Shown: piece after piece, positions 8,510 to 47,610 of the stretch | Numbering within the stretch: the first letter of the stretch is position 1 | Layout of the letters: each line of letters starts with the position of its first letter | From: a virus | Length of the DNA stretch: 56,556 nucleotides | Reading direction: 5' to 3' (one strand) | Virus record (IMG/VR): IMGVR_UViG_3300009529_000009 | Notes under the pieces: model-generated | The model's database searches: none | The model's input: only the letters and a program-made list of their open reading frames with translations | Told to the model about the DNA's origin: nothing | Translations under genes and position numbers: made by a program

Positions 8510-8529
8510 TGCCTTGATCGGAGCCCAGA

Positions 8530-8946: not shown

Positions 8947-8957
8947 GACCGACCCTT

Positions 8958-11286: not shown

Positions 11287-11289
11287 CTA

Positions 11290-17858: not shown

Positions 17859-17864
17859 CGGGCA

Positions 17865-18320
17865 CTACCCGCCTGCTCTTGGAGCTTCGTTCTTGGGGCG
17901 CCAGAAGGTCACGTTCCCCGGTAAGTGCTTCACGACTTGAAGAACATGTGCGTCAGCGATCCGGTGACGCCCAGGGAACTCGACGTTGAACGCTGTCCTC
18001 GGGTCGTCTTCCGCCATCACTTGCAGCGACTCGACTGCCGCCTGGAGTACGGACATCGTGTGCGATTGCATCATCCCAAACCAGCACATCAGTGAGGCAC
18101 CGCCGCGTGCGAACTGCTCCCGGAGATGTTCCGGGTCGAAAAGGAGCAGGTTGTACGGCTCCTTCTCCTGGCGGAGTTTCTCAGCCACGCGGCGAGCGAT
18201 CGGCTGCAAGACGAGGTACCTGATCACGCTGCCAACAGGGTCGACGATGAACGCCGTGCCCGGCCGGTTCCACTGAGAAGTCATGTCACCGTACTTGAAC
18301 GTTGGGTTCCTCATGTTCAT
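17865..18320 (-). CDS. Mirror copy: hypothetical protein (151 aa)
   Basis: Twin of 38237..38692. Confidence 0.5.
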   Translation of the reverse strand: MNMRNPTFKYGDMTSQWNRPGTAFIVDPVGSVIRYLVLQPIARRVAEKLRQEKEPYNLLLFDPEHLREQFARGGASLMCWFGMMQSHTMSVLQAAVESLQVMAEDDPRTAFNVEFPGRHRIADAHVLQVVKHLPGNVTFWRPKNEAPRAGG

Positions 18321-18343
18321 AACAGATTACCCTATGCCTGCTC

Positions 18344-20367: not shown

Positions 20368-21515
20368 GCTCTAACATCGGTTCGCTCGATCAAGAACTGA
20401 CGGTACGTATTCCAGTAGCACGCCGCAGGCGTTGGCATACGGAACGTGATCACCTTGCCCAGGTTCTGTGCGTCCTCTTTCCCTGGTGCAGTGACACTGA
20501 TGTGGCTTGCTCGCTGTGACAAGTACTCAAACATGGCGAAGTCATCGTCGAATCCGCCTTGGAATGTCACAGGTATCCGCGTCCTTCGGTGCGGCGGGAA
20601 CGTCTTGTTTTTGCGGGCCACGGCATACGGCATCACACCGTAGCTCGCCTTCGACTCACCATAGACCTGGCCTCCCGCCTGGACAGCCTGGGCCTCCAAG
20701 AACTTCTTTGCGCTGCGGAATTCCATGCGGATCGAAGCATGGAATCTGATGCCCTGCCCAAACGGTGTCGCGGGCTCGGTGTCCCACTGGTTGAACGTCG
20801 CGGACACATGGTTCACGAACACCATGAGAGCGTTGTGCTTCGCGACGAGCCCGGTGATCTCTCGCAGTCCTTCGCGCACAACACGACCCCCAGAACCCGG
20901 TCGGTCGTCCTTGGAGTGTGATGCTCCGATAGTATCCCATGTGATCAGCATGGGCTTGTTGTGCTTCTTCCCACCCAAGAGGCTCTTGATCCACGCATAG
21001 CCGTCCTCGATGAACTCGAACTCAAGGTACTTCACCGCGTGAGTGTCGACACCGATGCGGGCCATGCGTGCAGGGTCGAGCGTGTACTCAGTAATCCCCA
21101 TACAGACTTCGCCGCCAACACGCTGAACCTGAGCAGCCAGGTTTTCACAGAACGTGCTCTTTCCTGTGCTGTACGCTCCGACGACCTCAATGATACGACC
21201 GACTGGAACTCCCCAGTTCGTCGCGAGCGTACCGTCAGACGGGCTCGGTATGACCTCCCCGTCCTCGGTGACAGTGGTGGGGCCACCCATGATCGCATCG
21301 AGCGGAGTACACCCACAGCTGATACGCTCGCGAACAACCGAGTAGAGCTTGGCGGTCCCGAGCACTCCGACCGGGACCGCCTGCTCTGCCTTCTTGCCCT
21401 TCTGCTTCTTTGCGGCCTGCTTCTTGGTGCTCTTCTTCTTGGCCTTCTTCTTCTTGGGCGTCGTCTTCTTGGTCTGCCTTTTCGCTACCATGAGTTCCGC
21501 ACTCCTCGTCCGCAT
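20310..21515 (-). CDS. Mirror copy: RecA-superfamily recombinase
   Basis: Twin of 35042..36247. Confidence 0.85.
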   Translation of the reverse strand: MRTRSAELMVAKRQTKKTTPKKKKAKKKSTKKQAAKKQKGKKAEQAVPVGVLGTAKLYSVVRERISCGCTPLDAIMGGPTTVTEDGEVIPSPSDGTLATNWGVPVGRIIEVVGAYSTGKSTFCENLAAQVQRVGGEVCMGITEYTLDPARMARIGVDTHAVKYLEFEFIEDGYAWIKSLLGGKKHNKPMLITWDTIGASHSKDDRPGSGGRVVREGLREITGLVAKHNALMVFVNHVSATFNQWDTEPATPFGQGIRFHASIRMEFRSAKKFLEAQAVQAGGQVYGESKASYGVMPYAVARKNKTFPPHRRTRIPVTFQGGFDDDFAMFEYLSQRASHISVTAPGKEDAQNLGKVITFRMPTPAACYWNTYRQFLIERTDVRAWMVDQCRRLAYNGFDPVG

Positions 21516-21603
21516 CGGACTTCAAGAAGGCACGTTCGACAGAGCACCGAGCCGTTGGAGGAGCCGAAGCAGTTACGCTTACCGTTCGGCCCCTCCTGCT
21601 CGT

Positions 21604-23436
21604 CTACTGGGAAAAAGGGGGCTGCTGCCAGTTCGGAGCCGCCATCCCGGCCGGTGCCGGGGCAGGCGCGGGAGCCGGTACAGCTGCTGGCACCGCCGCA
21701 GGAGTCGCGGGCGTTGCAACGGCCTTACACTTCGCGGACTTGTTGAGGTGCGTCGTCAAGCCGCGTTGGCCGCTGTACTCGTTACCGCAGGCAGGGCATA
21801 GGACCTTGTCGGCCTTGGCCTTCCCTTTCGACTTGCCCTTCTTCGCCGGTTCTCCAGCACCATCAGTAGGGGACGTTGCCACCTGCTGCGGGGCCGGAGC
21901 CGGGGGGAAAGGGCTTTGGGGTCCTCCCTGTCCCGGCATCGCCGGAGGCTGAGGGAGAGCGCCAGCCTGAGGAGCCGGTGCAGGCATGGGCATTGGTGCC
22001 GGTGCCCCTGCGGGCATAGGACCAGGAGCCATCATCGGAGCCCCTGGGGGAACAACACCCGGACCCATTGCTGGCGCCCCTACAGGAGCGCCCGGCACCG
22101 CTGGCGGCGCCCACATGTTCTGCTGTGGCTGTGCCAGCATCGGAGCTGGCGTCGGTGCCGGTGCCACGGCAGCCGGTGCCCCGCCGACCGGGGGCATCAT
22201 ACCCATCGGTCCAACTCCGGCCGGAGCTGCCACCGAGGAACCCACTGGAGCTGGCTGAGGAGCTGACTGCGGGACCCCGGTGGCAGGCTGTCCGGCCATC
22301 GCAGGCATCGGCATTGAGCTTGGGCCACCGACACCCGGTGCGGTGTTCTGGAACTGGTTCGGCGGTCCCATCACACCCACTGCAGGAGCTGGAGGCTGAG
22401 GTGCGAACTGCTGACCTGCCTGAGGTCCGAACTGCTGTCCCGGCATCCCCATCTGGCCCATCGCGGGTGCGGCTGCACCATGCGTCTGGCCTACGATGTC
22501 GGGAACGGTGAGCTGCAGATTGAGGCCGAGCTGCTCCGGATGGTAGCCTGTCATCTGCAAGCACTGCTGCGCCAGAGTCTCTGCGATCTTCATCTGGTTC
22601 TGGAGCTTCTCGACCGTCGGGATACCGAAGTTCGCGAACGAGTCGAGGTCATGCATGCCGCTGAGAATCTGCTGCATCGTGTTCGGATCACCGGCGAGCG
22701 GACCCTGCATCGTCTGTTGCCATGTGTAACTGTTCTTGCCCTGGAACGACACGGGCTTCTTGATCAGTATGATCCAACCTGTCTGAAGGTTGAGGATCGA
22801 TCCCACGTACGGCATGGACATCAGCTGCACGAGACCCGAGAACACCGAGACGGGCAGGCGCAGGACGTAAGGCTTGAGCCGCCTGTACAACATGGTGCGG
22901 CCCATGTCCTGCGTGTCGTAGATCACCGAGTTGACGTACTGGTAGGAGCGGGGCGTCATGTTGTCGAGGCTGCCGCCCATGTACTGACTGTACACATCGA
23001 TCACCTGGCAGATCGGGCACGTGAAACCGTAGTTCGGGTACGACTTCTCCCAGCACGACGAGTGCTGGTTGCCGAGCAGCTGGTGGTGCGAGCAATGGAA
23101 CTTCGACCACGCTCCACGCTGTGCAGCCGCGTCGCTCCACGGCGGGAGCACGCGGAACCAGTTGTCACCGGTCTTGAAGGAGTAGAAGTCTGTGTCCTTC
23201 TTCCGCGCCGCGTTCATCGTGCTGATTTCTTCGGCCTGTTTGCGGATGCTCTCCATGTCGACGTCACGAGCCATGATAGAGTTGACGTCGACACCCGGAG
23301 CACCACCCTGGCCGCCCGGCGGCATCGCCGGAGGCTGTGCAGGTGCGAATTGAGCCGCCTGCGGGACGACGGGTGCCATTCCCGGCTGCCCGGGCATTTG
23401 CATTCCCCCGCCAGGCATCATCTGTCCTGGTTGCAT
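21604..23436 (-). CDS. Mirror copy: gp32-like SSB candidate with Pro/Ala/Met-rich region
   Basis: Twin of 33121..34953. Confidence 0.5.
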   Translation of the reverse strand: MQPGQMMPGGGMQMPGQPGMAPVVPQAAQFAPAQPPAMPPGGQGGAPGVDVNSIMARDVDMESIRKQAEEISTMNAARKKDTDFYSFKTGDNWFRVLPPWSDAAAQRGAWSKFHCSHHQLLGNQHSSCWEKSYPNYGFTCPICQVIDVYSQYMGGSLDNMTPRSYQYVNSVIYDTQDMGRTMLYRRLKPYVLRLPVSVFSGLVQLMSMPYVGSILNLQTGWIILIKKPVSFQGKNSYTWQQTMQGPLAGDPNTMQQILSGMHDLDSFANFGIPTVEKLQNQMKIAETLAQQCLQMTGYHPEQLGLNLQLTVPDIVGQTHGAAAPAMGQMGMPGQQFGPQAGQQFAPQPPAPAVGVMGPPNQFQNTAPGVGGPSSMPMPAMAGQPATGVPQSAPQPAPVGSSVAAPAGVGPMGMMPPVGGAPAAVAPAPTPAPMLAQPQQNMWAPPAVPGAPVGAPAMGPGVVPPGAPMMAPGPMPAGAPAPMPMPAPAPQAGALPQPPAMPGQGGPQSPFPPAPAPQQVATSPTDGAGEPAKKGKSKGKAKADKVLCPACGNEYSGQRGLTTHLNKSAKCKAVATPATPAAVPAAVPAPAPAPAPAGMAAPNWQQPPFSQ

Positions 23437-23449
23437 CGCTATTACCTCC

Positions 23450-24157
23450 CTAGCCAGTCACCTGGGGTGATCGCGGGTCAGACGACTCCCTGATCAGTCC
23501 CAATTCGCGCTGGGTCCACACGCTCGCCTGGACGAGCATCTCTGTTTGCATACTGTCGAGCAGGTTCTGCAGCTGGTAGCCCAGGTACTCCCAGTCATCC
23601 TGCAGCTCCTGCAACATCGAGTGCGTCGGGTCATTCCTGATCTGCGCGTCGACCGCGTCGTTCGTCACCTTGATGCTCTTGTCCTGCATGGACATCTCAC
23701 CAAGTCTCTGACGGGTCGGCATGTCGAGGTCGCGCTGGCGCATCTTGCGCACACGCTCGACCAGGCGCTGCATCTCGGTGGACCACGTACGGTAGAACCG
23801 AATGCTCTCCGCGATCCGCACGTACTCCATGACGATCGAACGGATCTCGGTGTTCTGGAACCACGAGATGATGTTCACGATCTGCGTGTACATCGGGTTC
23901 AGGTACTGCATCGTCTCCAGCAACCGCTGATCGTTCGAGGCCTGTGTCGCCTGGTAGATCTTCTGGATCTTCGTGTAGAGGTACTGCTGCACGAAGTCGA
24001 AGGAAGGCTTGTTCACTGCCTGTCCCTCCACTGGTGGCAGATGCACATACACCTGATCCGGTGTTGGCTGCGTTCCCCCTTGCGTTGCTGGTGCAGCCTG
24101 ACCCTGCAACGCACTCTTCTTGACGGCCTTCTTCTTTGCCACTGCTCCTCCTTTCAT
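23450..24157 (-). CDS. Mirror copy: hypothetical protein (235 aa)
   Basis: Twin of 32400..33107. Confidence 0.6.
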   Translation of the reverse strand: MKGGAVAKKKAVKKSALQGQAAPATQGGTQPTPDQVYVHLPPVEGQAVNKPSFDFVQQYLYTKIQKIYQATQASNDQRLLETMQYLNPMYTQIVNIISWFQNTEIRSIVMEYVRIAESIRFYRTWSTEMQRLVERVRKMRQRDLDMPTRQRLGEMSMQDKSIKVTNDAVDAQIRNDPTHSMLQELQDDWEYLGYQLQNLLDSMQTEMLVQASVWTQRELGLIRESSDPRSPQVTG

Positions 24158-26943
24158 CAGCCAGCTCGCGGTGTCACAACCGCATGAATCTCACGTGGGC
24201 TCCAGTCGAGGTTCTGCAGTTGAAGGACCTGTCCCAACGGACCCTCGAACTGCGAAGCGACCTTCTTATAGTAGCGATCGTAGCAGGACTCTTCGTCCGA
24301 TCTCGCCTCGAAGTGTATGTGCAGCTTCTCTCCCTCGAAGTGGTCTATCTCGATCTTGTCTCCCCAAGACTTCCCGAACTCAATGCCGATCTTCAGGGGT
24401 ACGCGGAGCCACGGATACATCGCCATGGGCTCTTCGACCATGACGCGCTGTGCCAGGTGGACCAGCTTGAATAGCTCGCCAGGGAAAACGTCCCAGTAAA
24501 TGGCGTCGTGGTGGAAGATGATCAGCTTGGACTTGAGGCCCATCTCGTCCATATACTGCCGCGCTCGAATGATAGCAAGCTCCACAATGTCGGAGGCCGT
24601 CGACTGGATAGGGGTGTTCATTGCCTGGCGGATCGCATGCCGCTCACTCGTCTGCGTGTTGCCTATGTTGATGATGCTGCGTCGGCCGAATGGCGTGCTG
24701 ACGTAGCCAAACTTGAACAGCTCCTGGCTCTTCTGCGCCTTGAACTGCTCAACCGCCACAAGTGCGAGGAACTTGGCGTGAACGATATCAGCATCACGTT
24801 TGAGCATGCCGGTCTGACCCGCAAGGTTGCCCGCGCCGCCGCCGTAGAGCGAGGCAAACACACAGGTCTTCGCAATTCGACGTTCCTCGGTCGTCACATG
24901 CTCGTACGGTACATCAAACAAGAGGCTGGCCATATATCGGTGGAGGTCAGCTCCGGCCATCTCACAGTAGAAGCGGATCAGGTTGACGTCGTTTGCAAGC
25001 GAGGCGAAGACACGGACCTCGACCTGTGATTCGTCGGCACCAAGTAAACACCCGCCCTGCTCGGCCCACCGTGAAACGTACTGGCACCGGATGTTACCCT
25101 GAGCTGGAGCGCTGTGGATCGGTGGGTCTTGCGCTGAGAAGCGCCCGGTACGAGCACCTGTCACGTTCCACGTCGGGTGGACTAGACCAAACCTGTCCTG
25201 GTACTTGAGGTTCGATTCGACATACGTTCCCAGATACCTCTGCAGTGTGCGCCAGTCGCTCAGCTTCGACAGGACAGCGTGCGGCCGCTTCTTGTTGTTC
25301 CGCCTCGTCCATCCGAGCAACTGTTCAAGCTGGTCGGCCTCAGTCGTACGCGGAGGCTTGTTCGGTATCCTTGCAGGTGGCATCTTCATCACATCATAGA
25401 TCAGCGTCGCCATCTGCTGCGGAGATCCCAGGTTGACAGATTCCTTCGTGGGGTCCTTGCCCATAATCTGCAGCGTCGTCTCTGCATACTTGGTCGAGTT
25501 GATCTCGGCCTCGATCAACTTCATGCTCGACGGGATCTCTTCCTTCAGCTGCGCCACGACCCTGTTGTCGATCGCAACGCCGTCATACTGCATGTCACCG
25601 AACGGAACAATGGCATCCTGGTAGTGCCGCTTGTAGACATCATAGAGACCGTGCTCCTGGAGCATCTTCATGATCAATGGCACGAGGCGCCACGTCACAT
25701 CAGAGTCGATGCACGCGTAGAGCGCGAGGTCCTCCAGTGGTGCCACCGCGTAGCCCGCGCCCTGGCGTGCGATTGTTCTCCAGCGCAGCCAGTACTGCTG
25801 GGCGCCTTCGTCCTTTGCCTTCTTCGCTGCGCGGATCTCCTTGTCGATATACGTCCGTGCTTCCTTCACCTTGTCGATCAGCCGGTAGGACCACGAGGGT
25901 TCCTGAAGGTAGAGCCCACCCATGGTCTCCAAGTCGTTCGGCCTGCTCCCTGTGAAGATGCAGTGGTGGGCCAGCATTGGATCAAAGACGATCTGCTTCG
26001 GCATGAGCCCGAGACGGTGCCGCCACCATTGCCAGTCGAACTTCATGTTCTGGTTGGCCATGGGGATATTACAGAGGGGAGCCAGTATCTCAGAGAGTCT
26101 TGTCATCTGCCCACTGAGCGGCGATTGCCAATGGTCCATTGGAATGTAGCGACCTTGGTGGGCACGGTAGCTCACCGCGAGCCCGAGGCAGGCGAGTTGT
26201 GGGTCATTCGCTTGGAGCCCGGCGGCCTCGAAGTCTGCTGTGATGTAGCCACCCTTCGTGGTGACCTCCTGCACGCACTCCTGAACGTAGGCCTTGACTT
26301 CGTCGATACTCCTGAGCATGGCGTAGTCACGCTTGGCATACCGGGCCTGAGCGCTCTGTGATGTAGCGCCACCCTGTGCAAGACTCCAGGCGAGCTTGAT
26401 GTCGTGCATGAAGAACGTGAGCAGCGTCACATCGTTCCCTTGGCGCCGGATGTAAGAAGGGTGGATGGTCGGCACAACCGTGTATGTCTGCTGACCGATC
26501 GTTGTCTGCTGGACTGTCCCTCGGATGCTCATGATCCCAGCTGTTGTCGTTAACAACGCCTTCGTCGGGATGTCGCCCAGGGTGAGTATCACCTTCGGCT
26601 GCGCCAACTCAATGTCACGCAGCACAGACGGCCTGCACGCCTTTATGTGCGGTGCTGCTGGTCTGCCGATCTTGCCAGCCTTCGTGTTGAATGGTGCACA
26701 CCTGACTGTGTTGTTGATGCGAATCATGACGTCTGGGATCTGCATGCGTCGCAGGCAATCGCGGAGGAGTTGCCCGGCGGGTCCGATGAAGGGCACGCCG
26801 TGAAAGTCCTCTTGTGAGCCCGGCGCCTCTCCAAGGATGTAGAGCGTAGGGCGCTCCACACCCCATGGCTCTACGCCACAGGTGCGGATCACTGTCCCAA
26901 CGAGTTCCTTTAGCGGGCACTTCTCTGCTATGCAGTAAGCCAA
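24157..26943 (-). CDS. Mirror copy: UDG(family 4)-DNA polymerase A fusion
   Basis: Twin of 29614..32400. Confidence 0.9.
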   Translation of the reverse strand: MAYCIAEKCPLKELVGTVIRTCGVEPWGVERPTLYILGEAPGSQEDFHGVPFIGPAGQLLRDCLRRMQIPDVMIRINNTVRCAPFNTKAGKIGRPAAPHIKACRPSVLRDIELAQPKVILTLGDIPTKALLTTTAGIMSIRGTVQQTTIGQQTYTVVPTIHPSYIRRQGNDVTLLTFFMHDIKLAWSLAQGGATSQSAQARYAKRDYAMLRSIDEVKAYVQECVQEVTTKGGYITADFEAAGLQANDPQLACLGLAVSYRAHQGRYIPMDHWQSPLSGQMTRLSEILAPLCNIPMANQNMKFDWQWWRHRLGLMPKQIVFDPMLAHHCIFTGSRPNDLETMGGLYLQEPSWSYRLIDKVKEARTYIDKEIRAAKKAKDEGAQQYWLRWRTIARQGAGYAVAPLEDLALYACIDSDVTWRLVPLIMKMLQEHGLYDVYKRHYQDAIVPFGDMQYDGVAIDNRVVAQLKEEIPSSMKLIEAEINSTKYAETTLQIMGKDPTKESVNLGSPQQMATLIYDVMKMPPARIPNKPPRTTEADQLEQLLGWTRRNNKKRPHAVLSKLSDWRTLQRYLGTYVESNLKYQDRFGLVHPTWNVTGARTGRFSAQDPPIHSAPAQGNIRCQYVSRWAEQGGCLLGADESQVEVRVFASLANDVNLIRFYCEMAGADLHRYMASLLFDVPYEHVTTEERRIAKTCVFASLYGGGAGNLAGQTGMLKRDADIVHAKFLALVAVEQFKAQKSQELFKFGYVSTPFGRRSIINIGNTQTSERHAIRQAMNTPIQSTASDIVELAIIRARQYMDEMGLKSKLIIFHHDAIYWDVFPGELFKLVHLAQRVMVEEPMAMYPWLRVPLKIGIEFGKSWGDKIEIDHFEGEKLHIHFEARSDEESCYDRYYKKVASQFEGPLGQVLQLQNLDWSPREIHAVVTPRAG

Positions 26944-27881
26944 CGCTTGCCCCTTGGCTCCAGTGCGTCAGTGTCGAGCTGCCTATCAAACTCAGCAGCG
27001 ATCTCGCCAAAAGCCACAGCAACCTTCTTGAGCAGCACCACCAGATCGCCCTGTGCGCTCCTGAACTGCTCCGGTGTACTGTGGTAGTACTTCTCTTTGT
27101 AGTCGGACACCCACGCCAAGATACGCGCCATCGAAGACGCAGCCTTGTCGAGGTTGAAGAAGTCGAGCCACGCCGCAAGACACGCCAGGTGGGTCAAGTC
27201 GGGTTCACGGTGGTACCTGCGGGTGGTGAACACTGTTCCGCTGACCGACGCAGCCCTCTGCATCAGTCCTTCGATCTTTGTGGTGTACCTATGAAGGTGC
27301 TCCCCCGCAAGACGGTGTGACTCGATCAGCCAACGATGCGCGAGCGAGTCGAAGGTCTTTGCCTCCCTGGGACACAGACGACTGACGACGAGCGGGACGA
27401 TCTCGATGTAGGTGTACTCCATGTGCTGGTAGCTTGGGCCGCGACCGGCCGCTGTATTGAAGCTGTCGCGCATGTTTTTGACGTACAGGTCCAGCGGGAT
27501 CTCGTCGCGCTTTGGGTCCCGCTGGTAGCGTATCTTTACAGCCTCGAAGGCATCTTCCCAAGCGTAGGCCGTGACCGACTGCCAGGTCTGGCTGATCCTG
27601 GTGACGAACGCTCGCCAATTCTTGGCCCAGGTTTTAACAGCCTTCTCGAAGGGCTTGCGATTGCCGGTGGGTAGGTAGCGCACTCCGGTGGAGACCTGCC
27701 CCGGCAAGAGCGCGATGTTGACGCTTGTCCGGTGCCGGAGGTTGAGCTGGTTGTAAGCACGACGCTCTTGTTTGGGCAAGAGGGTGCAGGTGCGAACGTA
27801 GTTCGCCACCTTGTGGTGTAGTTTCGGAGGCGTCCATAGAATGAACGCGCCCGACCCAGTAAGGAAGTCGGAGATAGTCAT
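26928..27881 (-). CDS. Mirror copy: hypothetical protein (317 aa)
   Basis: Twin of 28676..29629. Confidence 0.6.
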   Translation of the reverse strand: MTISDFLTGSGAFILWTPPKLHHKVANYVRTCTLLPKQERRAYNQLNLRHRTSVNIALLPGQVSTGVRYLPTGNRKPFEKAVKTWAKNWRAFVTRISQTWQSVTAYAWEDAFEAVKIRYQRDPKRDEIPLDLYVKNMRDSFNTAAGRGPSYQHMEYTYIEIVPLVVSRLCPREAKTFDSLAHRWLIESHRLAGEHLHRYTTKIEGLMQRAASVSGTVFTTRRYHREPDLTHLACLAAWLDFFNLDKAASSMARILAWVSDYKEKYYHSTPEQFRSAQGDLVVLLKKVAVAFGEIAAEFDRQLDTDALEPRGKRWLTA

Positions 27882-27983
27882 CAGCTCCCCAGTCAGCCGA
27901 GGGCAACCTAACGGCTAGCTGGGGAGTTGTCAAGGATTTTGTGCCTCACTTTTCAGGCACTTATTACACGATCTGATTATACC

Positions 27984-28277
27984 TCACAGATCGACGAGTT
28001 TGCACACCGCCTCGTAGAGATACCTCGTGTCTCCGTAGTCACCGGAGCCTAGCTTCGCCTGCGCGAGCCGCGAGACCATGGTCTTGAACTCGGCGTCCTC
28101 CATGGCCGCCTTGATCAGGGATTCGGCACCGACGCCGTAGTCATTGCACAGCGCCTCGCCGTTCCCGACTATCAGCCAAGAGAGCTTCACGTTAAGCGCC
28201 TTCGCGATCTTCTGCGCCAGCGCCACCGAGATCTCGTACTTGCCGCGCTCGATCTGACTGACTTGGGAAGCGCATCG
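27984..28277 (-). CDS. Mirror copy: 5'-truncated XRE HTH regulator fragment
   Basis: Reverse-complement twin of 28280..28573. Confidence 0.7.
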   Translation of the reverse strand, partial: RCASQVSQIERGKYEISVALAQKIAKALNVKLSWLIVGNGEALCNDYGVGAESLIKAAMEDAEFKTMVSRLAQAKLGSGDYGDTRYLYEAVCKLVDL

Positions 28278-28279
28278 GC

Positions 28280-28573
28280 CGATGCGCTTCCCAAGTCAGT
28301 CAGATCGAGCGCGGCAAGTACGAGATCTCGGTGGCGCTGGCGCAGAAGATCGCGAAGGCGCTTAACGTGAAGCTCTCTTGGCTGATAGTCGGGAACGGCG
28401 AGGCGCTGTGCAATGACTACGGCGTCGGTGCCGAATCCCTGATCAAGGCGGCCATGGAGGACGCCGAGTTCAAGACCATGGTCTCGCGGCTCGCGCAGGC
28501 GAAGCTAGGCTCCGGTGACTACGGAGACACGAGGTATCTCTACGAGGCGGTGTGCAAACTCGTCGATCTGTGA
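28280..28573 (+). CDS. XRE/Cro-CI-type HTH transcriptional regulator, 5'-truncated at the palindrome centre (no start codon; helix 1 missing)
   Basis: The frame reads ...RCASQVSQIERGKYEISVALAQKIAKALNVKLSWLIVGNGEA... This matches HTH_XRE helix 3 plus the linker (consensus ...GVSRSTISRIENGKRNPSLETLLKIAKALGVSLDEL). The frame is open back to the symmetry centre and has an in-frame TGA at 28259 in mirrored sequence. The track ORF 28331 (GTG) is only the tail of this gene. Confidence 0.7.
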   Translation, partial: RCASQVSQIERGKYEISVALAQKIAKALNVKLSWLIVGNGEALCNDYGVGAESLIKAAMEDAEFKTMVSRLAQAKLGSGDYGDTRYLYEAVCKLVDL

Positions 28574-28575
28574 GG

Positions 28576-28672
28576 TATAATCAGATCGTGTAATAAGTGC
28601 CTGAAAAGTGAGGCACAAAATCCTTGACAACTCCCCAGCTAGCCGTTAGGTTGCCCTCGGCTGACTGGGGAG
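28576..28672 (+). promoter_or_regulatory. Regulatory region between HTH gene and downstream gene: TATAAT (28576), short hairpin (28598..28616), TTGACA (28624) and imperfect inverted repeat CTCCCCAGcTAGCCG...CGGCTgaCTGGGGAG (28631..28672)
   Basis: Consensus hexamers are present but not well spaced relative to each other. The inverted repeat abuts the RBS of the 28676 gene, so it is a candidate operator for the adjacent XRE regulator. Confidence 0.3.
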
Positions 28673-28675
28673 CTG

Positions 28676-29629
28676 ATGACTATCTCCGACTTCCTTACTG
28701 GGTCGGGCGCGTTCATTCTATGGACGCCTCCGAAACTACACCACAAGGTGGCGAACTACGTTCGCACCTGCACCCTCTTGCCCAAACAAGAGCGTCGTGC
28801 TTACAACCAGCTCAACCTCCGGCACCGGACAAGCGTCAACATCGCGCTCTTGCCGGGGCAGGTCTCCACCGGAGTGCGCTACCTACCCACCGGCAATCGC
28901 AAGCCCTTCGAGAAGGCTGTTAAAACCTGGGCCAAGAATTGGCGAGCGTTCGTCACCAGGATCAGCCAGACCTGGCAGTCGGTCACGGCCTACGCTTGGG
29001 AAGATGCCTTCGAGGCTGTAAAGATACGCTACCAGCGGGACCCAAAGCGCGACGAGATCCCGCTGGACCTGTACGTCAAAAACATGCGCGACAGCTTCAA
29101 TACAGCGGCCGGTCGCGGCCCAAGCTACCAGCACATGGAGTACACCTACATCGAGATCGTCCCGCTCGTCGTCAGTCGTCTGTGTCCCAGGGAGGCAAAG
29201 ACCTTCGACTCGCTCGCGCATCGTTGGCTGATCGAGTCACACCGTCTTGCGGGGGAGCACCTTCATAGGTACACCACAAAGATCGAAGGACTGATGCAGA
29301 GGGCTGCGTCGGTCAGCGGAACAGTGTTCACCACCCGCAGGTACCACCGTGAACCCGACTTGACCCACCTGGCGTGTCTTGCGGCGTGGCTCGACTTCTT
29401 CAACCTCGACAAGGCTGCGTCTTCGATGGCGCGTATCTTGGCGTGGGTGTCCGACTACAAAGAGAAGTACTACCACAGTACACCGGAGCAGTTCAGGAGC
29501 GCACAGGGCGATCTGGTGGTGCTGCTCAAGAAGGTTGCTGTGGCTTTTGGCGAGATCGCTGCTGAGTTTGATAGGCAGCTCGACACTGACGCACTGGAGC
29601 CAAGGGGCAAGCGTTGGCTTACTGCATAG
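28676..29629 (+). CDS. hypothetical protein (317 aa)
   Basis: ATG with GGGGAG RBS. Preceded by an inverted repeat and promoter-like hexamers. No recognisable motifs. Confidence 0.6.
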   Translation: MTISDFLTGSGAFILWTPPKLHHKVANYVRTCTLLPKQERRAYNQLNLRHRTSVNIALLPGQVSTGVRYLPTGNRKPFEKAVKTWAKNWRAFVTRISQTWQSVTAYAWEDAFEAVKIRYQRDPKRDEIPLDLYVKNMRDSFNTAAGRGPSYQHMEYTYIEIVPLVVSRLCPREAKTFDSLAHRWLIESHRLAGEHLHRYTTKIEGLMQRAASVSGTVFTTRRYHREPDLTHLACLAAWLDFFNLDKAASSMARILAWVSDYKEKYYHSTPEQFRSAQGDLVVLLKKVAVAFGEIAAEFDRQLDTDALEPRGKRWLTA

Positions 29630-32400
29630 CAGAGAAGTGCCCGCTAAAGGAACTCGTTGGGACAGTGATCCGCACCTGTGGCGTAGAGCCATGGGGTGTG
29701 GAGCGCCCTACGCTCTACATCCTTGGAGAGGCGCCGGGCTCACAAGAGGACTTTCACGGCGTGCCCTTCATCGGACCCGCCGGGCAACTCCTCCGCGATT
29801 GCCTGCGACGCATGCAGATCCCAGACGTCATGATTCGCATCAACAACACAGTCAGGTGTGCACCATTCAACACGAAGGCTGGCAAGATCGGCAGACCAGC
29901 AGCACCGCACATAAAGGCGTGCAGGCCGTCTGTGCTGCGTGACATTGAGTTGGCGCAGCCGAAGGTGATACTCACCCTGGGCGACATCCCGACGAAGGCG
30001 TTGTTAACGACAACAGCTGGGATCATGAGCATCCGAGGGACAGTCCAGCAGACAACGATCGGTCAGCAGACATACACGGTTGTGCCGACCATCCACCCTT
30101 CTTACATCCGGCGCCAAGGGAACGATGTGACGCTGCTCACGTTCTTCATGCACGACATCAAGCTCGCCTGGAGTCTTGCACAGGGTGGCGCTACATCACA
30201 GAGCGCTCAGGCCCGGTATGCCAAGCGTGACTACGCCATGCTCAGGAGTATCGACGAAGTCAAGGCCTACGTTCAGGAGTGCGTGCAGGAGGTCACCACG
30301 AAGGGTGGCTACATCACAGCAGACTTCGAGGCCGCCGGGCTCCAAGCGAATGACCCACAACTCGCCTGCCTCGGGCTCGCGGTGAGCTACCGTGCCCACC
30401 AAGGTCGCTACATTCCAATGGACCATTGGCAATCGCCGCTCAGTGGGCAGATGACAAGACTCTCTGAGATACTGGCTCCCCTCTGTAATATCCCCATGGC
30501 CAACCAGAACATGAAGTTCGACTGGCAATGGTGGCGGCACCGTCTCGGGCTCATGCCGAAGCAGATCGTCTTTGATCCAATGCTGGCCCACCACTGCATC
30601 TTCACAGGGAGCAGGCCGAACGACTTGGAGACCATGGGTGGGCTCTACCTTCAGGAACCCTCGTGGTCCTACCGGCTGATCGACAAGGTGAAGGAAGCAC
30701 GGACGTATATCGACAAGGAGATCCGCGCAGCGAAGAAGGCAAAGGACGAAGGCGCCCAGCAGTACTGGCTGCGCTGGAGAACAATCGCACGCCAGGGCGC
30801 GGGCTACGCGGTGGCACCACTGGAGGACCTCGCGCTCTACGCGTGCATCGACTCTGATGTGACGTGGCGCCTCGTGCCATTGATCATGAAGATGCTCCAG
30901 GAGCACGGTCTCTATGATGTCTACAAGCGGCACTACCAGGATGCCATTGTTCCGTTCGGTGACATGCAGTATGACGGCGTTGCGATCGACAACAGGGTCG
31001 TGGCGCAGCTGAAGGAAGAGATCCCGTCGAGCATGAAGTTGATCGAGGCCGAGATCAACTCGACCAAGTATGCAGAGACGACGCTGCAGATTATGGGCAA
31101 GGACCCCACGAAGGAATCTGTCAACCTGGGATCTCCGCAGCAGATGGCGACGCTGATCTATGATGTGATGAAGATGCCACCTGCAAGGATACCGAACAAG
31201 CCTCCGCGTACGACTGAGGCCGACCAGCTTGAACAGTTGCTCGGATGGACGAGGCGGAACAACAAGAAGCGGCCGCACGCTGTCCTGTCGAAGCTGAGCG
31301 ACTGGCGCACACTGCAGAGGTATCTGGGAACGTATGTCGAATCGAACCTCAAGTACCAGGACAGGTTTGGTCTAGTCCACCCGACGTGGAACGTGACAGG
31401 TGCTCGTACCGGGCGCTTCTCAGCGCAAGACCCACCGATCCACAGCGCTCCAGCTCAGGGTAACATCCGGTGCCAGTACGTTTCACGGTGGGCCGAGCAG
31501 GGCGGGTGTTTACTTGGTGCCGACGAATCACAGGTCGAGGTCCGTGTCTTCGCCTCGCTTGCAAACGACGTCAACCTGATCCGCTTCTACTGTGAGATGG
31601 CCGGAGCTGACCTCCACCGATATATGGCCAGCCTCTTGTTTGATGTACCGTACGAGCATGTGACGACCGAGGAACGTCGAATTGCGAAGACCTGTGTGTT
31701 TGCCTCGCTCTACGGCGGCGGCGCGGGCAACCTTGCGGGTCAGACCGGCATGCTCAAACGTGATGCTGATATCGTTCACGCCAAGTTCCTCGCACTTGTG
31801 GCGGTTGAGCAGTTCAAGGCGCAGAAGAGCCAGGAGCTGTTCAAGTTTGGCTACGTCAGCACGCCATTCGGCCGACGCAGCATCATCAACATAGGCAACA
31901 CGCAGACGAGTGAGCGGCATGCGATCCGCCAGGCAATGAACACCCCTATCCAGTCGACGGCCTCCGACATTGTGGAGCTTGCTATCATTCGAGCGCGGCA
32001 GTATATGGACGAGATGGGCCTCAAGTCCAAGCTGATCATCTTCCACCACGACGCCATTTACTGGGACGTTTTCCCTGGCGAGCTATTCAAGCTGGTCCAC
32101 CTGGCACAGCGCGTCATGGTCGAAGAGCCCATGGCGATGTATCCGTGGCTCCGCGTACCCCTGAAGATCGGCATTGAGTTCGGGAAGTCTTGGGGAGACA
32201 AGATCGAGATAGACCACTTCGAGGGAGAGAAGCTGCACATACACTTCGAGGCGAGATCGGACGAAGAGTCCTGCTACGATCGCTACTATAAGAAGGTCGC
32301 TTCGCAGTTCGAGGGTCCGTTGGGACAGGTCCTTCAACTGCAGAACCTCGACTGGAGCCCACGTGAGATTCATGCGGTTGTGACACCGCGAGCTGGCTGA
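29614..32400 (+). CDS. Family-4 uracil-DNA glycosylase domain fused to family-A DNA polymerase (with 3'-5' exonuclease-like region)
   Basis: 928 aa. The N-terminus carries CIAEKC...GEAPGSQED...GVPFIGPAGQLL (UDG family 4). An exo-like ITADFEAAGL follows. PolA motif A is LLGADESQVEVRV, motif B is RRIAKTCVFASLYGGG and motif C is IIFHHDAIYWD. TTG start at 29614. Confidence 0.9.
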   Translation: MAYCIAEKCPLKELVGTVIRTCGVEPWGVERPTLYILGEAPGSQEDFHGVPFIGPAGQLLRDCLRRMQIPDVMIRINNTVRCAPFNTKAGKIGRPAAPHIKACRPSVLRDIELAQPKVILTLGDIPTKALLTTTAGIMSIRGTVQQTTIGQQTYTVVPTIHPSYIRRQGNDVTLLTFFMHDIKLAWSLAQGGATSQSAQARYAKRDYAMLRSIDEVKAYVQECVQEVTTKGGYITADFEAAGLQANDPQLACLGLAVSYRAHQGRYIPMDHWQSPLSGQMTRLSEILAPLCNIPMANQNMKFDWQWWRHRLGLMPKQIVFDPMLAHHCIFTGSRPNDLETMGGLYLQEPSWSYRLIDKVKEARTYIDKEIRAAKKAKDEGAQQYWLRWRTIARQGAGYAVAPLEDLALYACIDSDVTWRLVPLIMKMLQEHGLYDVYKRHYQDAIVPFGDMQYDGVAIDNRVVAQLKEEIPSSMKLIEAEINSTKYAETTLQIMGKDPTKESVNLGSPQQMATLIYDVMKMPPARIPNKPPRTTEADQLEQLLGWTRRNNKKRPHAVLSKLSDWRTLQRYLGTYVESNLKYQDRFGLVHPTWNVTGARTGRFSAQDPPIHSAPAQGNIRCQYVSRWAEQGGCLLGADESQVEVRVFASLANDVNLIRFYCEMAGADLHRYMASLLFDVPYEHVTTEERRIAKTCVFASLYGGGAGNLAGQTGMLKRDADIVHAKFLALVAVEQFKAQKSQELFKFGYVSTPFGRRSIINIGNTQTSERHAIRQAMNTPIQSTASDIVELAIIRARQYMDEMGLKSKLIIFHHDAIYWDVFPGELFKLVHLAQRVMVEEPMAMYPWLRVPLKIGIEFGKSWGDKIEIDHFEGEKLHIHFEARSDEESCYDRYYKKVASQFEGPLGQVLQLQNLDWSPREIHAVVTPRAG

Positions 32401-33107
32401 TGAAAGGAGGAGCAGTGGCAAAGAAGAAGGCCGTCAAGAAGAGTGCGTTGCAGGGTCAGGCTGCACCAGCAACGCAAGGGGGAACGCAGCCAACACCGGA
32501 TCAGGTGTATGTGCATCTGCCACCAGTGGAGGGACAGGCAGTGAACAAGCCTTCCTTCGACTTCGTGCAGCAGTACCTCTACACGAAGATCCAGAAGATC
32601 TACCAGGCGACACAGGCCTCGAACGATCAGCGGTTGCTGGAGACGATGCAGTACCTGAACCCGATGTACACGCAGATCGTGAACATCATCTCGTGGTTCC
32701 AGAACACCGAGATCCGTTCGATCGTCATGGAGTACGTGCGGATCGCGGAGAGCATTCGGTTCTACCGTACGTGGTCCACCGAGATGCAGCGCCTGGTCGA
32801 GCGTGTGCGCAAGATGCGCCAGCGCGACCTCGACATGCCGACCCGTCAGAGACTTGGTGAGATGTCCATGCAGGACAAGAGCATCAAGGTGACGAACGAC
32901 GCGGTCGACGCGCAGATCAGGAATGACCCGACGCACTCGATGTTGCAGGAGCTGCAGGATGACTGGGAGTACCTGGGCTACCAGCTGCAGAACCTGCTCG
33001 ACAGTATGCAAACAGAGATGCTCGTCCAGGCGAGCGTGTGGACCCAGCGCGAATTGGGACTGATCAGGGAGTCGTCTGACCCGCGATCACCCCAGGTGAC
33101 TGGCTAG
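32400..33107 (+). CDS. hypothetical protein (235 aa), translationally coupled to polymerase (TGATG overlap)
   Basis: The ATG shares its A with the polymerase TGA stop. Basic N-terminus. No recognisable domain. Confidence 0.6.
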   Translation: MKGGAVAKKKAVKKSALQGQAAPATQGGTQPTPDQVYVHLPPVEGQAVNKPSFDFVQQYLYTKIQKIYQATQASNDQRLLETMQYLNPMYTQIVNIISWFQNTEIRSIVMEYVRIAESIRFYRTWSTEMQRLVERVRKMRQRDLDMPTRQRLGEMSMQDKSIKVTNDAVDAQIRNDPTHSMLQELQDDWEYLGYQLQNLLDSMQTEMLVQASVWTQRELGLIRESSDPRSPQVTG

Positions 33108-33120
33108 GGAGGTAATAGCG

Positions 33121-34953
33121 ATGCAACCAGGACAGATGATGCCTGGCGGGGGAATGCAAATGCCCGGGCAGCCGGGAATGGCACCCGTCGTCCCGCAGGC
33201 GGCTCAATTCGCACCTGCACAGCCTCCGGCGATGCCGCCGGGCGGCCAGGGTGGTGCTCCGGGTGTCGACGTCAACTCTATCATGGCTCGTGACGTCGAC
33301 ATGGAGAGCATCCGCAAACAGGCCGAAGAAATCAGCACGATGAACGCGGCGCGGAAGAAGGACACAGACTTCTACTCCTTCAAGACCGGTGACAACTGGT
33401 TCCGCGTGCTCCCGCCGTGGAGCGACGCGGCTGCACAGCGTGGAGCGTGGTCGAAGTTCCATTGCTCGCACCACCAGCTGCTCGGCAACCAGCACTCGTC
33501 GTGCTGGGAGAAGTCGTACCCGAACTACGGTTTCACGTGCCCGATCTGCCAGGTGATCGATGTGTACAGTCAGTACATGGGCGGCAGCCTCGACAACATG
33601 ACGCCCCGCTCCTACCAGTACGTCAACTCGGTGATCTACGACACGCAGGACATGGGCCGCACCATGTTGTACAGGCGGCTCAAGCCTTACGTCCTGCGCC
33701 TGCCCGTCTCGGTGTTCTCGGGTCTCGTGCAGCTGATGTCCATGCCGTACGTGGGATCGATCCTCAACCTTCAGACAGGTTGGATCATACTGATCAAGAA
33801 GCCCGTGTCGTTCCAGGGCAAGAACAGTTACACATGGCAACAGACGATGCAGGGTCCGCTCGCCGGTGATCCGAACACGATGCAGCAGATTCTCAGCGGC
33901 ATGCATGACCTCGACTCGTTCGCGAACTTCGGTATCCCGACGGTCGAGAAGCTCCAGAACCAGATGAAGATCGCAGAGACTCTGGCGCAGCAGTGCTTGC
34001 AGATGACAGGCTACCATCCGGAGCAGCTCGGCCTCAATCTGCAGCTCACCGTTCCCGACATCGTAGGCCAGACGCATGGTGCAGCCGCACCCGCGATGGG
34101 CCAGATGGGGATGCCGGGACAGCAGTTCGGACCTCAGGCAGGTCAGCAGTTCGCACCTCAGCCTCCAGCTCCTGCAGTGGGTGTGATGGGACCGCCGAAC
34201 CAGTTCCAGAACACCGCACCGGGTGTCGGTGGCCCAAGCTCAATGCCGATGCCTGCGATGGCCGGACAGCCTGCCACCGGGGTCCCGCAGTCAGCTCCTC
34301 AGCCAGCTCCAGTGGGTTCCTCGGTGGCAGCTCCGGCCGGAGTTGGACCGATGGGTATGATGCCCCCGGTCGGCGGGGCACCGGCTGCCGTGGCACCGGC
34401 ACCGACGCCAGCTCCGATGCTGGCACAGCCACAGCAGAACATGTGGGCGCCGCCAGCGGTGCCGGGCGCTCCTGTAGGGGCGCCAGCAATGGGTCCGGGT
34501 GTTGTTCCCCCAGGGGCTCCGATGATGGCTCCTGGTCCTATGCCCGCAGGGGCACCGGCACCAATGCCCATGCCTGCACCGGCTCCTCAGGCTGGCGCTC
34601 TCCCTCAGCCTCCGGCGATGCCGGGACAGGGAGGACCCCAAAGCCCTTTCCCCCCGGCTCCGGCCCCGCAGCAGGTGGCAACGTCCCCTACTGATGGTGC
34701 TGGAGAACCGGCGAAGAAGGGCAAGTCGAAAGGGAAGGCCAAGGCCGACAAGGTCCTATGCCCTGCCTGCGGTAACGAGTACAGCGGCCAACGCGGCTTG
34801 ACGACGCACCTCAACAAGTCCGCGAAGTGTAAGGCCGTTGCAACGCCCGCGACTCCTGCGGCGGTGCCAGCAGCTGTACCGGCTCCCGCGCCTGCCCCGG
34901 CACCGGCCGGGATGGCGGCTCCGAACTGGCAGCAGCCCCCTTTTTCCCAGTAG
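33121..34953 (+). CDS. putative ssDNA-binding protein (T4 gp32-like Zn-binding pattern) with ~230-aa Pro/Ala/Met/Gln-rich low-complexity region and C-terminal zinc-ribbon
   Basis: GGGAGG RBS. The pattern H..C-x11-C-x2-C (FHCSHHQLLGNQHSSCWEKSYPNYGFTCPICQ) resembles the gp32 Zn subdomain spacing. A long PAPAP/MPG repeat region follows. The C-terminus reads CPACGNEYSGQRGLTTHLNKSAKC. Its position between polymerase and recombinase fits an SSB. Confidence 0.5.
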   Translation: MQPGQMMPGGGMQMPGQPGMAPVVPQAAQFAPAQPPAMPPGGQGGAPGVDVNSIMARDVDMESIRKQAEEISTMNAARKKDTDFYSFKTGDNWFRVLPPWSDAAAQRGAWSKFHCSHHQLLGNQHSSCWEKSYPNYGFTCPICQVIDVYSQYMGGSLDNMTPRSYQYVNSVIYDTQDMGRTMLYRRLKPYVLRLPVSVFSGLVQLMSMPYVGSILNLQTGWIILIKKPVSFQGKNSYTWQQTMQGPLAGDPNTMQQILSGMHDLDSFANFGIPTVEKLQNQMKIAETLAQQCLQMTGYHPEQLGLNLQLTVPDIVGQTHGAAAPAMGQMGMPGQQFGPQAGQQFAPQPPAPAVGVMGPPNQFQNTAPGVGGPSSMPMPAMAGQPATGVPQSAPQPAPVGSSVAAPAGVGPMGMMPPVGGAPAAVAPAPTPAPMLAQPQQNMWAPPAVPGAPVGAPAMGPGVVPPGAPMMAPGPMPAGAPAPMPMPAPAPQAGALPQPPAMPGQGGPQSPFPPAPAPQQVATSPTDGAGEPAKKGKSKGKAKADKVLCPACGNEYSGQRGLTTHLNKSAKCKAVATPATPAAVPAAVPAPAPAPAPAGMAAPNWQQPPFSQ

Positions 34954-35041
34954 ACGAGCAGGAGGGGCCGAACGGTAAGCGTAACTGCTTCGGCTCCTCC
35001 AACGGCTCGGTGCTCTGTCGAACGTGCCTTCTTGAAGTCCG

Positions 35042-36247
35042 ATGCGGACGAGGAGTGCGGAACTCATGGTAGCGAAAAGGCAGACCAAGAAGACGACGCC
35101 CAAGAAGAAGAAGGCCAAGAAGAAGAGCACCAAGAAGCAGGCCGCAAAGAAGCAGAAGGGCAAGAAGGCAGAGCAGGCGGTCCCGGTCGGAGTGCTCGGG
35201 ACCGCCAAGCTCTACTCGGTTGTTCGCGAGCGTATCAGCTGTGGGTGTACTCCGCTCGATGCGATCATGGGTGGCCCCACCACTGTCACCGAGGACGGGG
35301 AGGTCATACCGAGCCCGTCTGACGGTACGCTCGCGACGAACTGGGGAGTTCCAGTCGGTCGTATCATTGAGGTCGTCGGAGCGTACAGCACAGGAAAGAG
35401 CACGTTCTGTGAAAACCTGGCTGCTCAGGTTCAGCGTGTTGGCGGCGAAGTCTGTATGGGGATTACTGAGTACACGCTCGACCCTGCACGCATGGCCCGC
35501 ATCGGTGTCGACACTCACGCGGTGAAGTACCTTGAGTTCGAGTTCATCGAGGACGGCTATGCGTGGATCAAGAGCCTCTTGGGTGGGAAGAAGCACAACA
35601 AGCCCATGCTGATCACATGGGATACTATCGGAGCATCACACTCCAAGGACGACCGACCGGGTTCTGGGGGTCGTGTTGTGCGCGAAGGACTGCGAGAGAT
35701 CACCGGGCTCGTCGCGAAGCACAACGCTCTCATGGTGTTCGTGAACCATGTGTCCGCGACGTTCAACCAGTGGGACACCGAGCCCGCGACACCGTTTGGG
35801 CAGGGCATCAGATTCCATGCTTCGATCCGCATGGAATTCCGCAGCGCAAAGAAGTTCTTGGAGGCCCAGGCTGTCCAGGCGGGAGGCCAGGTCTATGGTG
35901 AGTCGAAGGCGAGCTACGGTGTGATGCCGTATGCCGTGGCCCGCAAAAACAAGACGTTCCCGCCGCACCGAAGGACGCGGATACCTGTGACATTCCAAGG
36001 CGGATTCGACGATGACTTCGCCATGTTTGAGTACTTGTCACAGCGAGCAAGCCACATCAGTGTCACTGCACCAGGGAAAGAGGACGCACAGAACCTGGGC
36101 AAGGTGATCACGTTCCGTATGCCAACGCCTGCGGCGTGCTACTGGAATACGTACCGTCAGTTCTTGATCGAGCGAACCGATGTTAGAGCTTGGATGGTGG
36201 ACCAATGCCGAAGGCTGGCTTACAACGGCTTCGACCCGGTGGGGTAG
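35042..36247 (+). CDS. RecA-superfamily recombinase (RecA/UvsX/Sak4-like) with Lys-rich N-terminal tail
   Basis: GVPVGRIIEVVGAYSTGKSTFCENLAAQVQRVGGEVCMGITEYTLDPARMARIGVD aligns to the RecA core ([21 protein letters not shown]...DAEHALDP...LGVD). An alternative start lies at 35066. Confidence 0.85.
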   Translation: MRTRSAELMVAKRQTKKTTPKKKKAKKKSTKKQAAKKQKGKKAEQAVPVGVLGTAKLYSVVRERISCGCTPLDAIMGGPTTVTEDGEVIPSPSDGTLATNWGVPVGRIIEVVGAYSTGKSTFCENLAAQVQRVGGEVCMGITEYTLDPARMARIGVDTHAVKYLEFEFIEDGYAWIKSLLGGKKHNKPMLITWDTIGASHSKDDRPGSGGRVVREGLREITGLVAKHNALMVFVNHVSATFNQWDTEPATPFGQGIRFHASIRMEFRSAKKFLEAQAVQAGGQVYGESKASYGVMPYAVARKNKTFPPHRRTRIPVTFQGGFDDDFAMFEYLSQRASHISVTAPGKEDAQNLGKVITFRMPTPAACYWNTYRQFLIERTDVRAWMVDQCRRLAYNGFDPVG

Positions 36248-38213: not shown

Positions 38214-38236
38214 GAGCAGGCATAGGGTAATCTGTT

Positions 38237-38692: not shown

Positions 38693-38698
38693 TGCCCG

Positions 38699-45267: not shown

Positions 45268-45270
45268 TAG

Positions 45271-47599: not shown

Positions 47600-47610
47600 A
47601 AGGGTCGGTC

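Follow-up and report, generated by a model that had tools for sequence, protein, structure and literature searches.

Contigs that equal their own reverse complement are a described product of de Bruijn graph assembly. When SPAdes or MEGAHIT meets a 'lonely' inverted loop, it passes straight through and reports the whole palindromic unitig (Rahman & Medvedev 2022, PMC9528984), and under imperfect coverage unitigs can be 'unsafe', i.e. absent from the genome, even when the reads are error-free (PMC9528984). In rnaSPAdes, erroneous hairpin edges link an edge with its own reverse complement, from which chimeric palindromic sequence may result (bioRxiv 10.1101/420208). Contigs of this kind have been discarded as assembly errors before, with 81 wholly palindromic contigs removed from SPAdes assemblies of 1,781 M. 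bovis SRA read sets (PMC9455707) and further palindromic contigs removed from single-cell genomes (bioRxiv 10.1101/2023.06.06.543983). A related structure is made by polymerases: in chimeras from MDA (phi29 polymerase) or the T7 replisome, a 3' end re-primes at a short inverted repeat and yields rc(Y)-Y, a sequence Y preceded by its own reverse complement (PMC9484634). Such chimeras are usually minority reads, often with deletions or unequal arms at the read level. Natural hairpin ends are a further source of palindromes, and Tel sites consist of a perfect palindrome some tens of bp long. At the N15 telRL and Borrelia ResT telomeres, a perfect palindrome marks the place where a contig folds back (PMC6945570). 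Palindromes within coding sequence are rare but known, for example in the mitochondrial genes of Nematomorpha (PMC6649704).

The window analysed here, i.e. the whole stretch of 56,556 b, is one complete JGI/IMG metagenome contig. Comparison of the window with its own reverse complement gave 0 mismatches. The sole long palindrome centre lies between positions 28278 and 28279, with arms of 28,278 b each and no spacer. Owing to this perfect self-complementarity, the independent sequence is 28279-56556 only. Like the palindromic contigs of de Bruijn assemblers, the window has identical arms of equal length, carries all its genes in mirror image and turns at a palindrome that is ambiguous at the smallest k; it is a case of this known artefact class, the palindromic or hairpin contig. 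Unlike in other palindromic contigs, the native palindrome at its turn could be pinned (36 bp, within a CDS), and unfolded controls are available in the sister strains, whose version measures 30 bp. The features discussed below are as follows.

28279..56556, plus strand: right arm, the real sequence; a 28,278-b piece of a predicted large, novel tailed phage (Pfam/PHROGs annotation and native contigs).
1..28278, minus strand: mirrored arm, identical base for base to the reverse complement of 28279-56556; L001 and L011, both native contigs, part from it at 28260.
28261..28296, no strand assigned: genuine native palindrome, 36 bp and perfect, with left half ACTTGGGAAGCGCATCGG and right half CCGATGCGCTTCCCAAGT (left half identical in L001 and L011, right half from the window).
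28294, plus strand: strain-specific A (CAA, Gln39, synonymous), from base-by-base comparison; G (CAG) in L001 and L011.
28280..28573, plus strand: 3' part of the regulator gene, residues 35-131 of the native 131 aa (partial HTH_3 match; identical to residues 35-131 of the intact protein P0003).
27984..28277, minus strand: mirror copy of the regulator fragment, an artefactual duplicate (self-complementarity of the window).
28279..56556, plus strand: right-arm genes, namely the truncated HTH gene, a 317-aa ORF, a UDG-like/exonuclease/PolA fusion, an SSB-like and a RecA-like gene.
28279..56556, plus strand: further right-arm genes, namely FEN (flap endonuclease), an Mre11/Rad50-like pair, HU and a PD-(D/E)XK nuclease.
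Right arm, plus strand: large terminase of 1005 aa with an intein-like LAGLIDADG insert (Pfam/PHROGs).
Right arm, plus strand: T4-type portal, and a 900-aa protein with a major-vault-protein shoulder domain (Pfam/PHROGs).
56399..56556, plus strand: ORF still open at the outer end of the window (translation).

How the locus reads in related phages was taken from contigs that cross the junction. L001 and L011, contigs of two other JGI samples, are ~99% identical to the window right of its centre. Past the centre they share exactly 18 bases with it (28261-28278) and diverge from 28260, where the left side of L011 falls to ~28% identity with the mirrored arm, i.e. chance level. In both contigs the regulator gene is intact and has a start codon. 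As the match extends only 18 b past the centre, the gene is not itself mirrored and has its own, unrelated 5' part. The sequence-only reading had proposed aligning contigs with an intact copy of this gene, and had named a match to the mirrored arm beyond a 34-bp core as the sign that the true gene is palindromic. The two contigs supplied the true 5' sequence, and the match ends one base per side past that core; a gene palindromic beyond the core is refuted by L001 and L011.

Straight read-through was found in three independent native contigs of this allele family (L001, L011 and L002), and the fold-back is absent in 8/8 native contigs. L001, L003 and L007-L011 are independent native contigs, 97-99% identical to the right arm, of which L007-L010 match the window only from 28562 rightwards. 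In these four, the place of the window allele is taken by a divergent allele of the regulator, 127 aa long and preceded by ORFs that L001 and L011 have as well. Further upstream, L010 encodes a glycosyltransferase-like ORF, a DEAD/SNF2-type helicase, a DnaB-like helicase and a primase-like protein, all co-directional. The region just upstream of the regulator is a mosaic, strain-variable cassette. Exact DNA pattern scans with centre-adjacent sequence and a degenerate palindrome returned nothing from IMG/VR, JGI metagenome contigs or GTDB genomes, collections that evidently do not hold the relevant contigs. The mirrored arm 1..28278 most likely belongs to no genome, and the mirrored half together with the "truncated gene" is almost certainly a technical artefact, not biology; as genomic features, the fold-back and the gene truncation are not real.

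The interval 27984-28573 comprises both mirrored copies of the regulator gene fragment. Rightwards from 28280 the frame reads RCASQVSQIERGKYEISVALAQKIAKALNVKLSWLIVGNGEA... and ends at a TGA stop (28571-28573), giving a fragment of 97 aa. Its residues 4-35 match profile positions 24-55 of 55 of Pfam HTH_3 (PF01381), and since the match begins at profile position 24, the fragment lacks the first 23 positions, which hold helix 1 and most of helix 2. The window copy comprises helix 3 onward and the C-terminal domain, with start codon and helix 1 absent. Leftwards of the centre, the same frame continues for six codons as LGKRIG and then meets a TGA at 28259-28261. GTG at 28331 is the earliest in-frame start following a stop, and the ORFs 27984-28226 (minus strand) and 28331-28573 (plus strand) are mirror images of each other.

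A search with the 97-aa fragment returned two protein clusters whose members are intact regulators. P0001, encoded on L001, begins MRGLRNTQCWTLATLGKRIGRCASQVSQIERGK...; P0003, encoded on L011, is 131 aa long, starts with GTG and is identical to the window over residues 35-131; P0002 is 82% identical and contains ...TIGKRIGRSASQ.... All three intact proteins carry PF01381, and the regulator allele of L010 covers the complete domain (profile positions 1-55 of 55). The window copy is thus a fragment of an XRE-family HTH regulator. The 80-aa ORF 28331-28573 is itself present in a public protein collection as P0004, where it clusters with intact regulators. Its source is recorded as a JGI/IMG contig of exactly 56,556 b, which identifies the window as a whole contig. 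From the letters alone it had been proposed that the fold-back point lies inside an XRE-type HTH gene and truncates it, and that the 5' end of the gene, with start codon and helix 1, lies outside the window. Both proposals agree with these data, the centre leaving residues 35-131 and the intact genes for P0003 and P0001 having unrelated DNA upstream. The observation that LGKRIG suits the native HTH domain proved sound as well, these residues being part of the real protein (...TLATLGKRIGRCASQVSQ...).

The extent of the palindrome at the turn is not definable from the window alone, because the entire window is palindromic, and it was therefore read from native relatives. The first base of the palindrome is the third of codon T28, its last base is the second of codon V40, and its centre falls within Gly34 (GG/C). 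The strain-specific A at 28294, mirrored by T at 28263, lengthens the perfect palindrome from 30 to 36 bp; in the unfolded sister strains L001 and L011 it measures only 30 bp. This A is a true strain SNP, because a folded right side of the L001 type would carry C/G at -16/+16, not the observed T/A, and the observed pair agrees with the native left arm. The sequence-only reading had named a local 34-bp palindrome as the nucleating point. A short native palindrome does sit at that exact spot, but the native relatives set its length at 36 bp, not 34. For a 28-kb sequence, the chance expectation is ~8e-7 palindromes whose arms reach 18 bp or more; among the other perfect spacer-less palindromes of the arm, the longest has arms of 7 bp. 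The palindrome is real and chance is excluded, and it is the turning point of the fold-back.

Four alleles were compared by counting Watson-Crick pairs at the homologous centre and by folding 63 nt of single-stranded DNA.

Window strain: 18/18 Watson-Crick pairs; dG -22.5 kcal/mol; z -6.2.
L001 and L011: 17/18 pairs; dG -19.8 kcal/mol; z -5.1.
L002: 12/18 pairs (central positions 3-5 mismatched); dG -14.7 kcal/mol; z -2.9.
L007-L010 allele: 8/18 pairs; dG -8.2 kcal/mol; z -0.1.

Pairing count and dG rank the four alleles identically, and the palindrome is not conserved among the relatives. In this four-allele comparison the three L002-specific changes lower pairing, and since the central changes of L002 are not compensatory, there is no evidence of selection for a hairpin. 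With L007-L010 as outgroup, +5 A→T (with the adjacent +4; Ser→Cys) and the synonymous +16 G→A come out as derived and raise complementarity, on four alleles and one divergent outgroup allele. With so few sequences, mutation bias, selection or chance may lie behind this pattern. Template-switch mutation perfects imperfect inverted repeats, a process known as quasipalindrome correction (Ripley-type mutagenesis), and the substitutions of the window/L001 lineage may resemble it. The likeness to quasipalindrome correction and to the coding palindromes of Nematomorpha lies in an inverted repeat within a protein-coding gene. With the former the locus would also share derived changes (two adjacent bases, Ser→Cys; one synonymous) that each raise the complementarity of the arms. 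It differs from both in being a 36-bp repeat at a single locus, known from four alleles and polarized by one divergent outgroup allele.

As an operator the palindrome was rejected: no further half-sites occur in intergenic DNA of the window or of L011, and the sole other half-site match, one mirrored and with 3 mismatches, lies inside the RecA-like gene. Around the native regulator gene, no promoter-like or terminator-like sites were found. What remains as biology is an XRE-family regulator of 131 aa whose gene has a perfect 36-bp palindrome over the coding region for helix 2, turn and helix 3, a minor curiosity.

All long ORFs of the right arm lie on the plus strand. Because the ORF at the outer end is cut, that end is an ordinary contig break and not a second terminus. 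Against deposited phages, the arm proteins reach only ~22-26% identity; the portal resembles those of T4-superfamily myoviruses (130-380 kb) and PolA, whose exonuclease domain is a weak Pfam match, resembles SPO1-like polymerases. A blastn search of 28279-32400 against deposited phages gave no match, and a search with a 266-aa protein, aimed beyond the outer end, returned only distant IMG/VR relatives (≤41% identity). Judged by its predicted proteins, the arm is part of the genome of a large tailed phage not yet described; that genome probably exceeds 100 kb. The alternative of a complete, hairpin-ended 28-kb genome was rejected on account of most structural genes being missing, both 'ends' cutting CDSs and the closest phages measuring 130-380 kb.

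We consider it probable, though far from settled, that the fold-back arose at the graph level, at the palindrome and after loss of the upstream branch. The true genome reads X-palindrome-Y and the contig rc(Y)-palindrome-Y, with X comprising the first 34 regulator codons and, upstream of those, the helicase/primase module. When k is ≤35, a two-strand de Bruijn graph turns the 36-bp palindrome into a self-reverse-complementary edge (an 'inverted loop') that can be entered from X or rc(Y) and left to Y or rc(X). Had the X branch been removed or weakened, whether by a gap in coverage, by strain heterogeneity or by graph cleaning, the loop would be 'lonely', and a SPAdes-type assembler would push through it and emit a single, exactly symmetric contig. 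Identical arms that end at the same base are expected when one graph path is walked out and back; that they represent the consensus of two independent arms is very unlikely.

A k-mer test on the reconstructed native sequence, run at odd k values, bears on this account. The 36-bp version gives a self-reverse-complementary (k+1)-mer and a node with two entries and two exits for k ≤35 and none for k ≥37, and the 30-bp version gives the same ambiguity only for k ≤29. At k=33, only the folded strain (36 bp) is therefore ambiguous and the two correctly assembled strains are not, a contrast that sets one folded contig against two unfolded ones. JGI's standard procedure takes unamplified 2x150 libraries and assembles them with metaSPAdes at k=33,55,77,99,127. 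This sample was presumably assembled with that k series, at whose smallest value the native palindrome at the junction is long enough for ambiguity. From k=37 upward the palindrome causes no ambiguity, so that for the false junction to persist, the k-mers of the true X-palindrome-Y path must have been absent, or discarded at the k=33 stage. Loss of upstream k-mers is plausible given the mosaic, strain-variable cassette upstream; the X branch would have been lost in this way, and chimeric reads would not be needed. A search for the predicted twin contig (X-palindrome-rc(X)) through its chimeric protein MVAKTS...RCASQVSRVSNTACCGAHACGNRSRD returned no candidates, and as P0001 was likewise not returned, this search is uninformative.

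Snap-back or template switching in vitro would yield the same contig from real molecules, and we regard it as possible but doubtful. Here MDA, PCR or end-repair fill-in would have produced hairpin or inverted-dimer DNA: a strand ending at or near the palindrome would fold, prime itself and copy Y, and the assembler would follow the chimeric reads. The palindrome does form a very stable DNA hairpin (-22.5 kcal/mol, z = -6.2), and this route accounts without extra assumptions for the missing X side and for a junction that survives large k. Short inverted repeats are template-switch sites for the T7 replisome, with hairpin and inverted-repeat products, and inverted-repeat chimeras are reported for MDA (PMC9484634). 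The SPAdes authors tie hairpin edges to chimeric reads and MDA (bioRxiv 10.1101/420208), and palindromic contigs occur in MDA-amplified single-cell genomes (bioRxiv 10.1101/2023.06.06.543983). However, JGI libraries are as a rule not amplified, with low-input or external samples as possible exceptions, and chimeric reads, normally a small minority, should lose to the true path. The 30-bp hairpin is moreover nearly as stable (-19.8 kcal/mol), and the contrast between 36 and 30 bp is better predicted by the k threshold. The sequence-only reading had argued for a template-switch or fold-back event. The fold-back part of this stands, and it takes reads to distinguish a polymerase switch from a purely computational turn in the graph. 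A technical origin of whatever sort, be it in the graph only or by in-vitro snap-back, is highly probable. Quite improbable, by comparison, is an origin in the phage itself, where strand switching or hairpin capping at the palindrome during replication would have left real inverted-dimer or hairpin-ended defective genomes in the sample. Products of this kind are formed in vitro when a phage replisome with an exo+ polymerase meets a short inverted repeat (PMC9484634). The arm encodes PolA with its weakly matched exonuclease domain, a RecA-like protein and FEN, and the phage thus has its own polymerase and genes of recombination-dependent replication. But a 56-kb perfect palindrome with no helicase/primase module and only half of the regulator would be a defective genome, L001, L011 and L002 read straight through, and there is no positive evidence for such molecules. 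Long palindromes are also unstable in bacteria through cleavage by SbcCD (Mre11/Rad50), and the phage encodes an Mre11/Rad50-like pair of its own.

Two readings would make the symmetry a property of the genome. A natural hairpin telomere or protelomerase target, N15 telRL-like or Borrelia-like, could have been read around its closed end, and genuine hairpin telomeres do yield palindromic contig ends (Borrelia, PMC6945570). Yet the centre falls in codon 34 of a conserved 131-aa CDS that is embedded in a cluster of co-directional replication genes, and thus neither at a replicon end nor in non-coding DNA. The palindrome decays in the relatives, its centre included (17/18, 12/18 and 8/18 pairs), although a telomere target should be conserved, at the centre above all. 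In contrast to the N15 and Borrelia telomeres, the fold-back runs 28 kb to an arbitrary break within an ORF. No resolvase gene accompanies it: Pfam and PHROGs revealed no protelomerase or tyrosine recombinase among the 29 arm ORFs, nor did the 10 ORFs of a 10-kb native upstream stretch include one. To our knowledge, the nearest phage groups, T4-superfamily and SPO1-like myoviruses (130-380 kb), use no hairpin ends. That a junction inside a CDS speaks against a telomere or resolution site had been argued from the letters, and the co-directional replication module, the lack of a protelomerase and the non-conserved palindrome strengthen that argument; the telomere reading is close to refuted and has a minimal probability in our view. 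Just as little weight falls on the idea that a replicating genome truly carries this large inverted duplication, or that the gene is palindromic beyond its core. Mirror symmetry alone speaks for it, but the intact genes match the mirrored arm for 18 bases and then fall to ~28% identity, and a spacer-less 56-kb palindrome with zero divergence and equal ends is the signature of a path traversed twice.

The value of the finding is mainly one of data hygiene. Half of the contig is not genome and each gene is duplicated, and the spurious truncated 80-aa protein P0004 has already entered a public collection. CheckV-type tools call closed viral genomes by a rule of an inverted terminal repeat of at least 20 bp. 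A fully palindromic contig trivially passes this rule, so that a 28-kb fragment could pass as a complete 56.5-kb genome with inverted terminal repeats. The window offers a worked example in which the nucleating palindrome is located to the base and sister strains with a palindrome shorter by 6 bp were assembled correctly. A suitable screen asks whether a contig equals its reverse complement, and the fix is to cut at the centre and retain one arm. Were the improbable in-vivo fold-back true after all, the palindrome, 'perfected' stepwise as the relatives suggest, would be a natural snap-back hotspot in a large myovirus, with defective genomes abundant enough to dominate the assembly. For the phage itself, the 36-bp palindrome in a coding helix-turn-helix motif may record a template-switch mutation.

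Sequence comparison points to the regulator gene at the window centre, an XRE-type HTH gene, being a swapped cassette. Four metagenome contigs (L007–L010) match the window at 97–99% identity beginning at 28562, 12 b ahead of the HTH stop codon, and extending rightwards, and their own HTH regulator is a divergent 127-aa allele (...ALGRRIGLSASQLSQIERGK...). On the other side, relative to L001 and L011, the unfolded sister contigs with an intact regulator gene, homology is back ~48 b upstream of the regulator start codon, at 83–92% identity. In appearance the exchange is typical of immunity-type mosaics. This mosaic cassette may be the reason for a fragile assembly graph directly upstream of the palindrome, the inverted repeat within the regulator gene. 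The features of this region are:

window 28562; L008 5726-6109; L011 ~2003: regulator cassette swap, from comparison of L007–L010 with the window and L001/L011
window 28331-28573, mirror 27984-28226: P0004 ORF, from JGI gene calling
window 28625-28675: TTGACA-like hexamer followed by an inverted repeat, between the regulator and a 317-aa gene

The palindrome was compared between window 28261-28296, L002 345-380 (a relative) and L008 5812-5847, with the divergent allele as outgroup. At this homologous site, the number of paired positions rises through the allele series from 8/18 in the divergent allele via 12/18 in L002 and 17/18 in the sister contigs to 18/18 in the window. Polarized by the outgroup, CGG AGC to CGA TGC (Ser to Cys) and CAG to CAA are derived in the window lineage, both raising complementarity; such changes are reminiscent of quasipalindrome correction via template-switch mutation.

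The 80-aa “protein” P0004 is a gene call starting at an internal GTG of the truncated regulator gene and falls into one 90% cluster with the intact regulators. Mirror-image duplication gives two copies of every gene on the contig. Downstream, within the stretch common to the window and the L007–L010 strains, the 18-nt inverted repeat (CAACTCCCCAGCTAGCCG / CGGCTGACTGGGGAGCTG, 83% complementary, 12-nt loop) and its hexamer may constitute a promoter/operator. Separately, L001 388-488 has two counterparts in L009: the contig's own homologous copy from 1414 onward (83% identical) and a 101-b segment at 745-845 with 100% identity; the extra segment may be a small strain-chimeric join.

Four further loci stand out in the right half:

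window 29614-32400: DNA polymerase, 928 aa; UDG-superfamily domain fused to a weakly matching 3'-5' exonuclease domain and to PolA
window 37143-40357: Mre11/Rad50 (SbcCD-like) pair; metallophosphoesterase and AAA_23 ATPase
window 42250-45267: large terminase, 1005 aa; LAGLIDADG-type insert at residues ~360-405
window 50967-53669: 900-aa phage protein; Major Vault Protein shoulder domain match, E = 1.3e-17

A Major Vault Protein shoulder domain is unusual in a phage structural or late region. The 900-aa protein matches the vault repeat Vault_3 below threshold (E = 5e-5, 23.8 bits; cut-off 28.8), and has neither a PHROG family nor a sequence match among PDB entries. The terminase insert suggests an intein or homing-endonuclease insertion within the ATPase domain. 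The polymerase aligns over residues 28-865, its entire architecture, with SPO1-like phage polymerases at ~25% identity. SbcCD-like nucleases cut DNA hairpins, and the phage's own Mre11/Rad50 pair thus argues against in vivo persistence of long palindromes.
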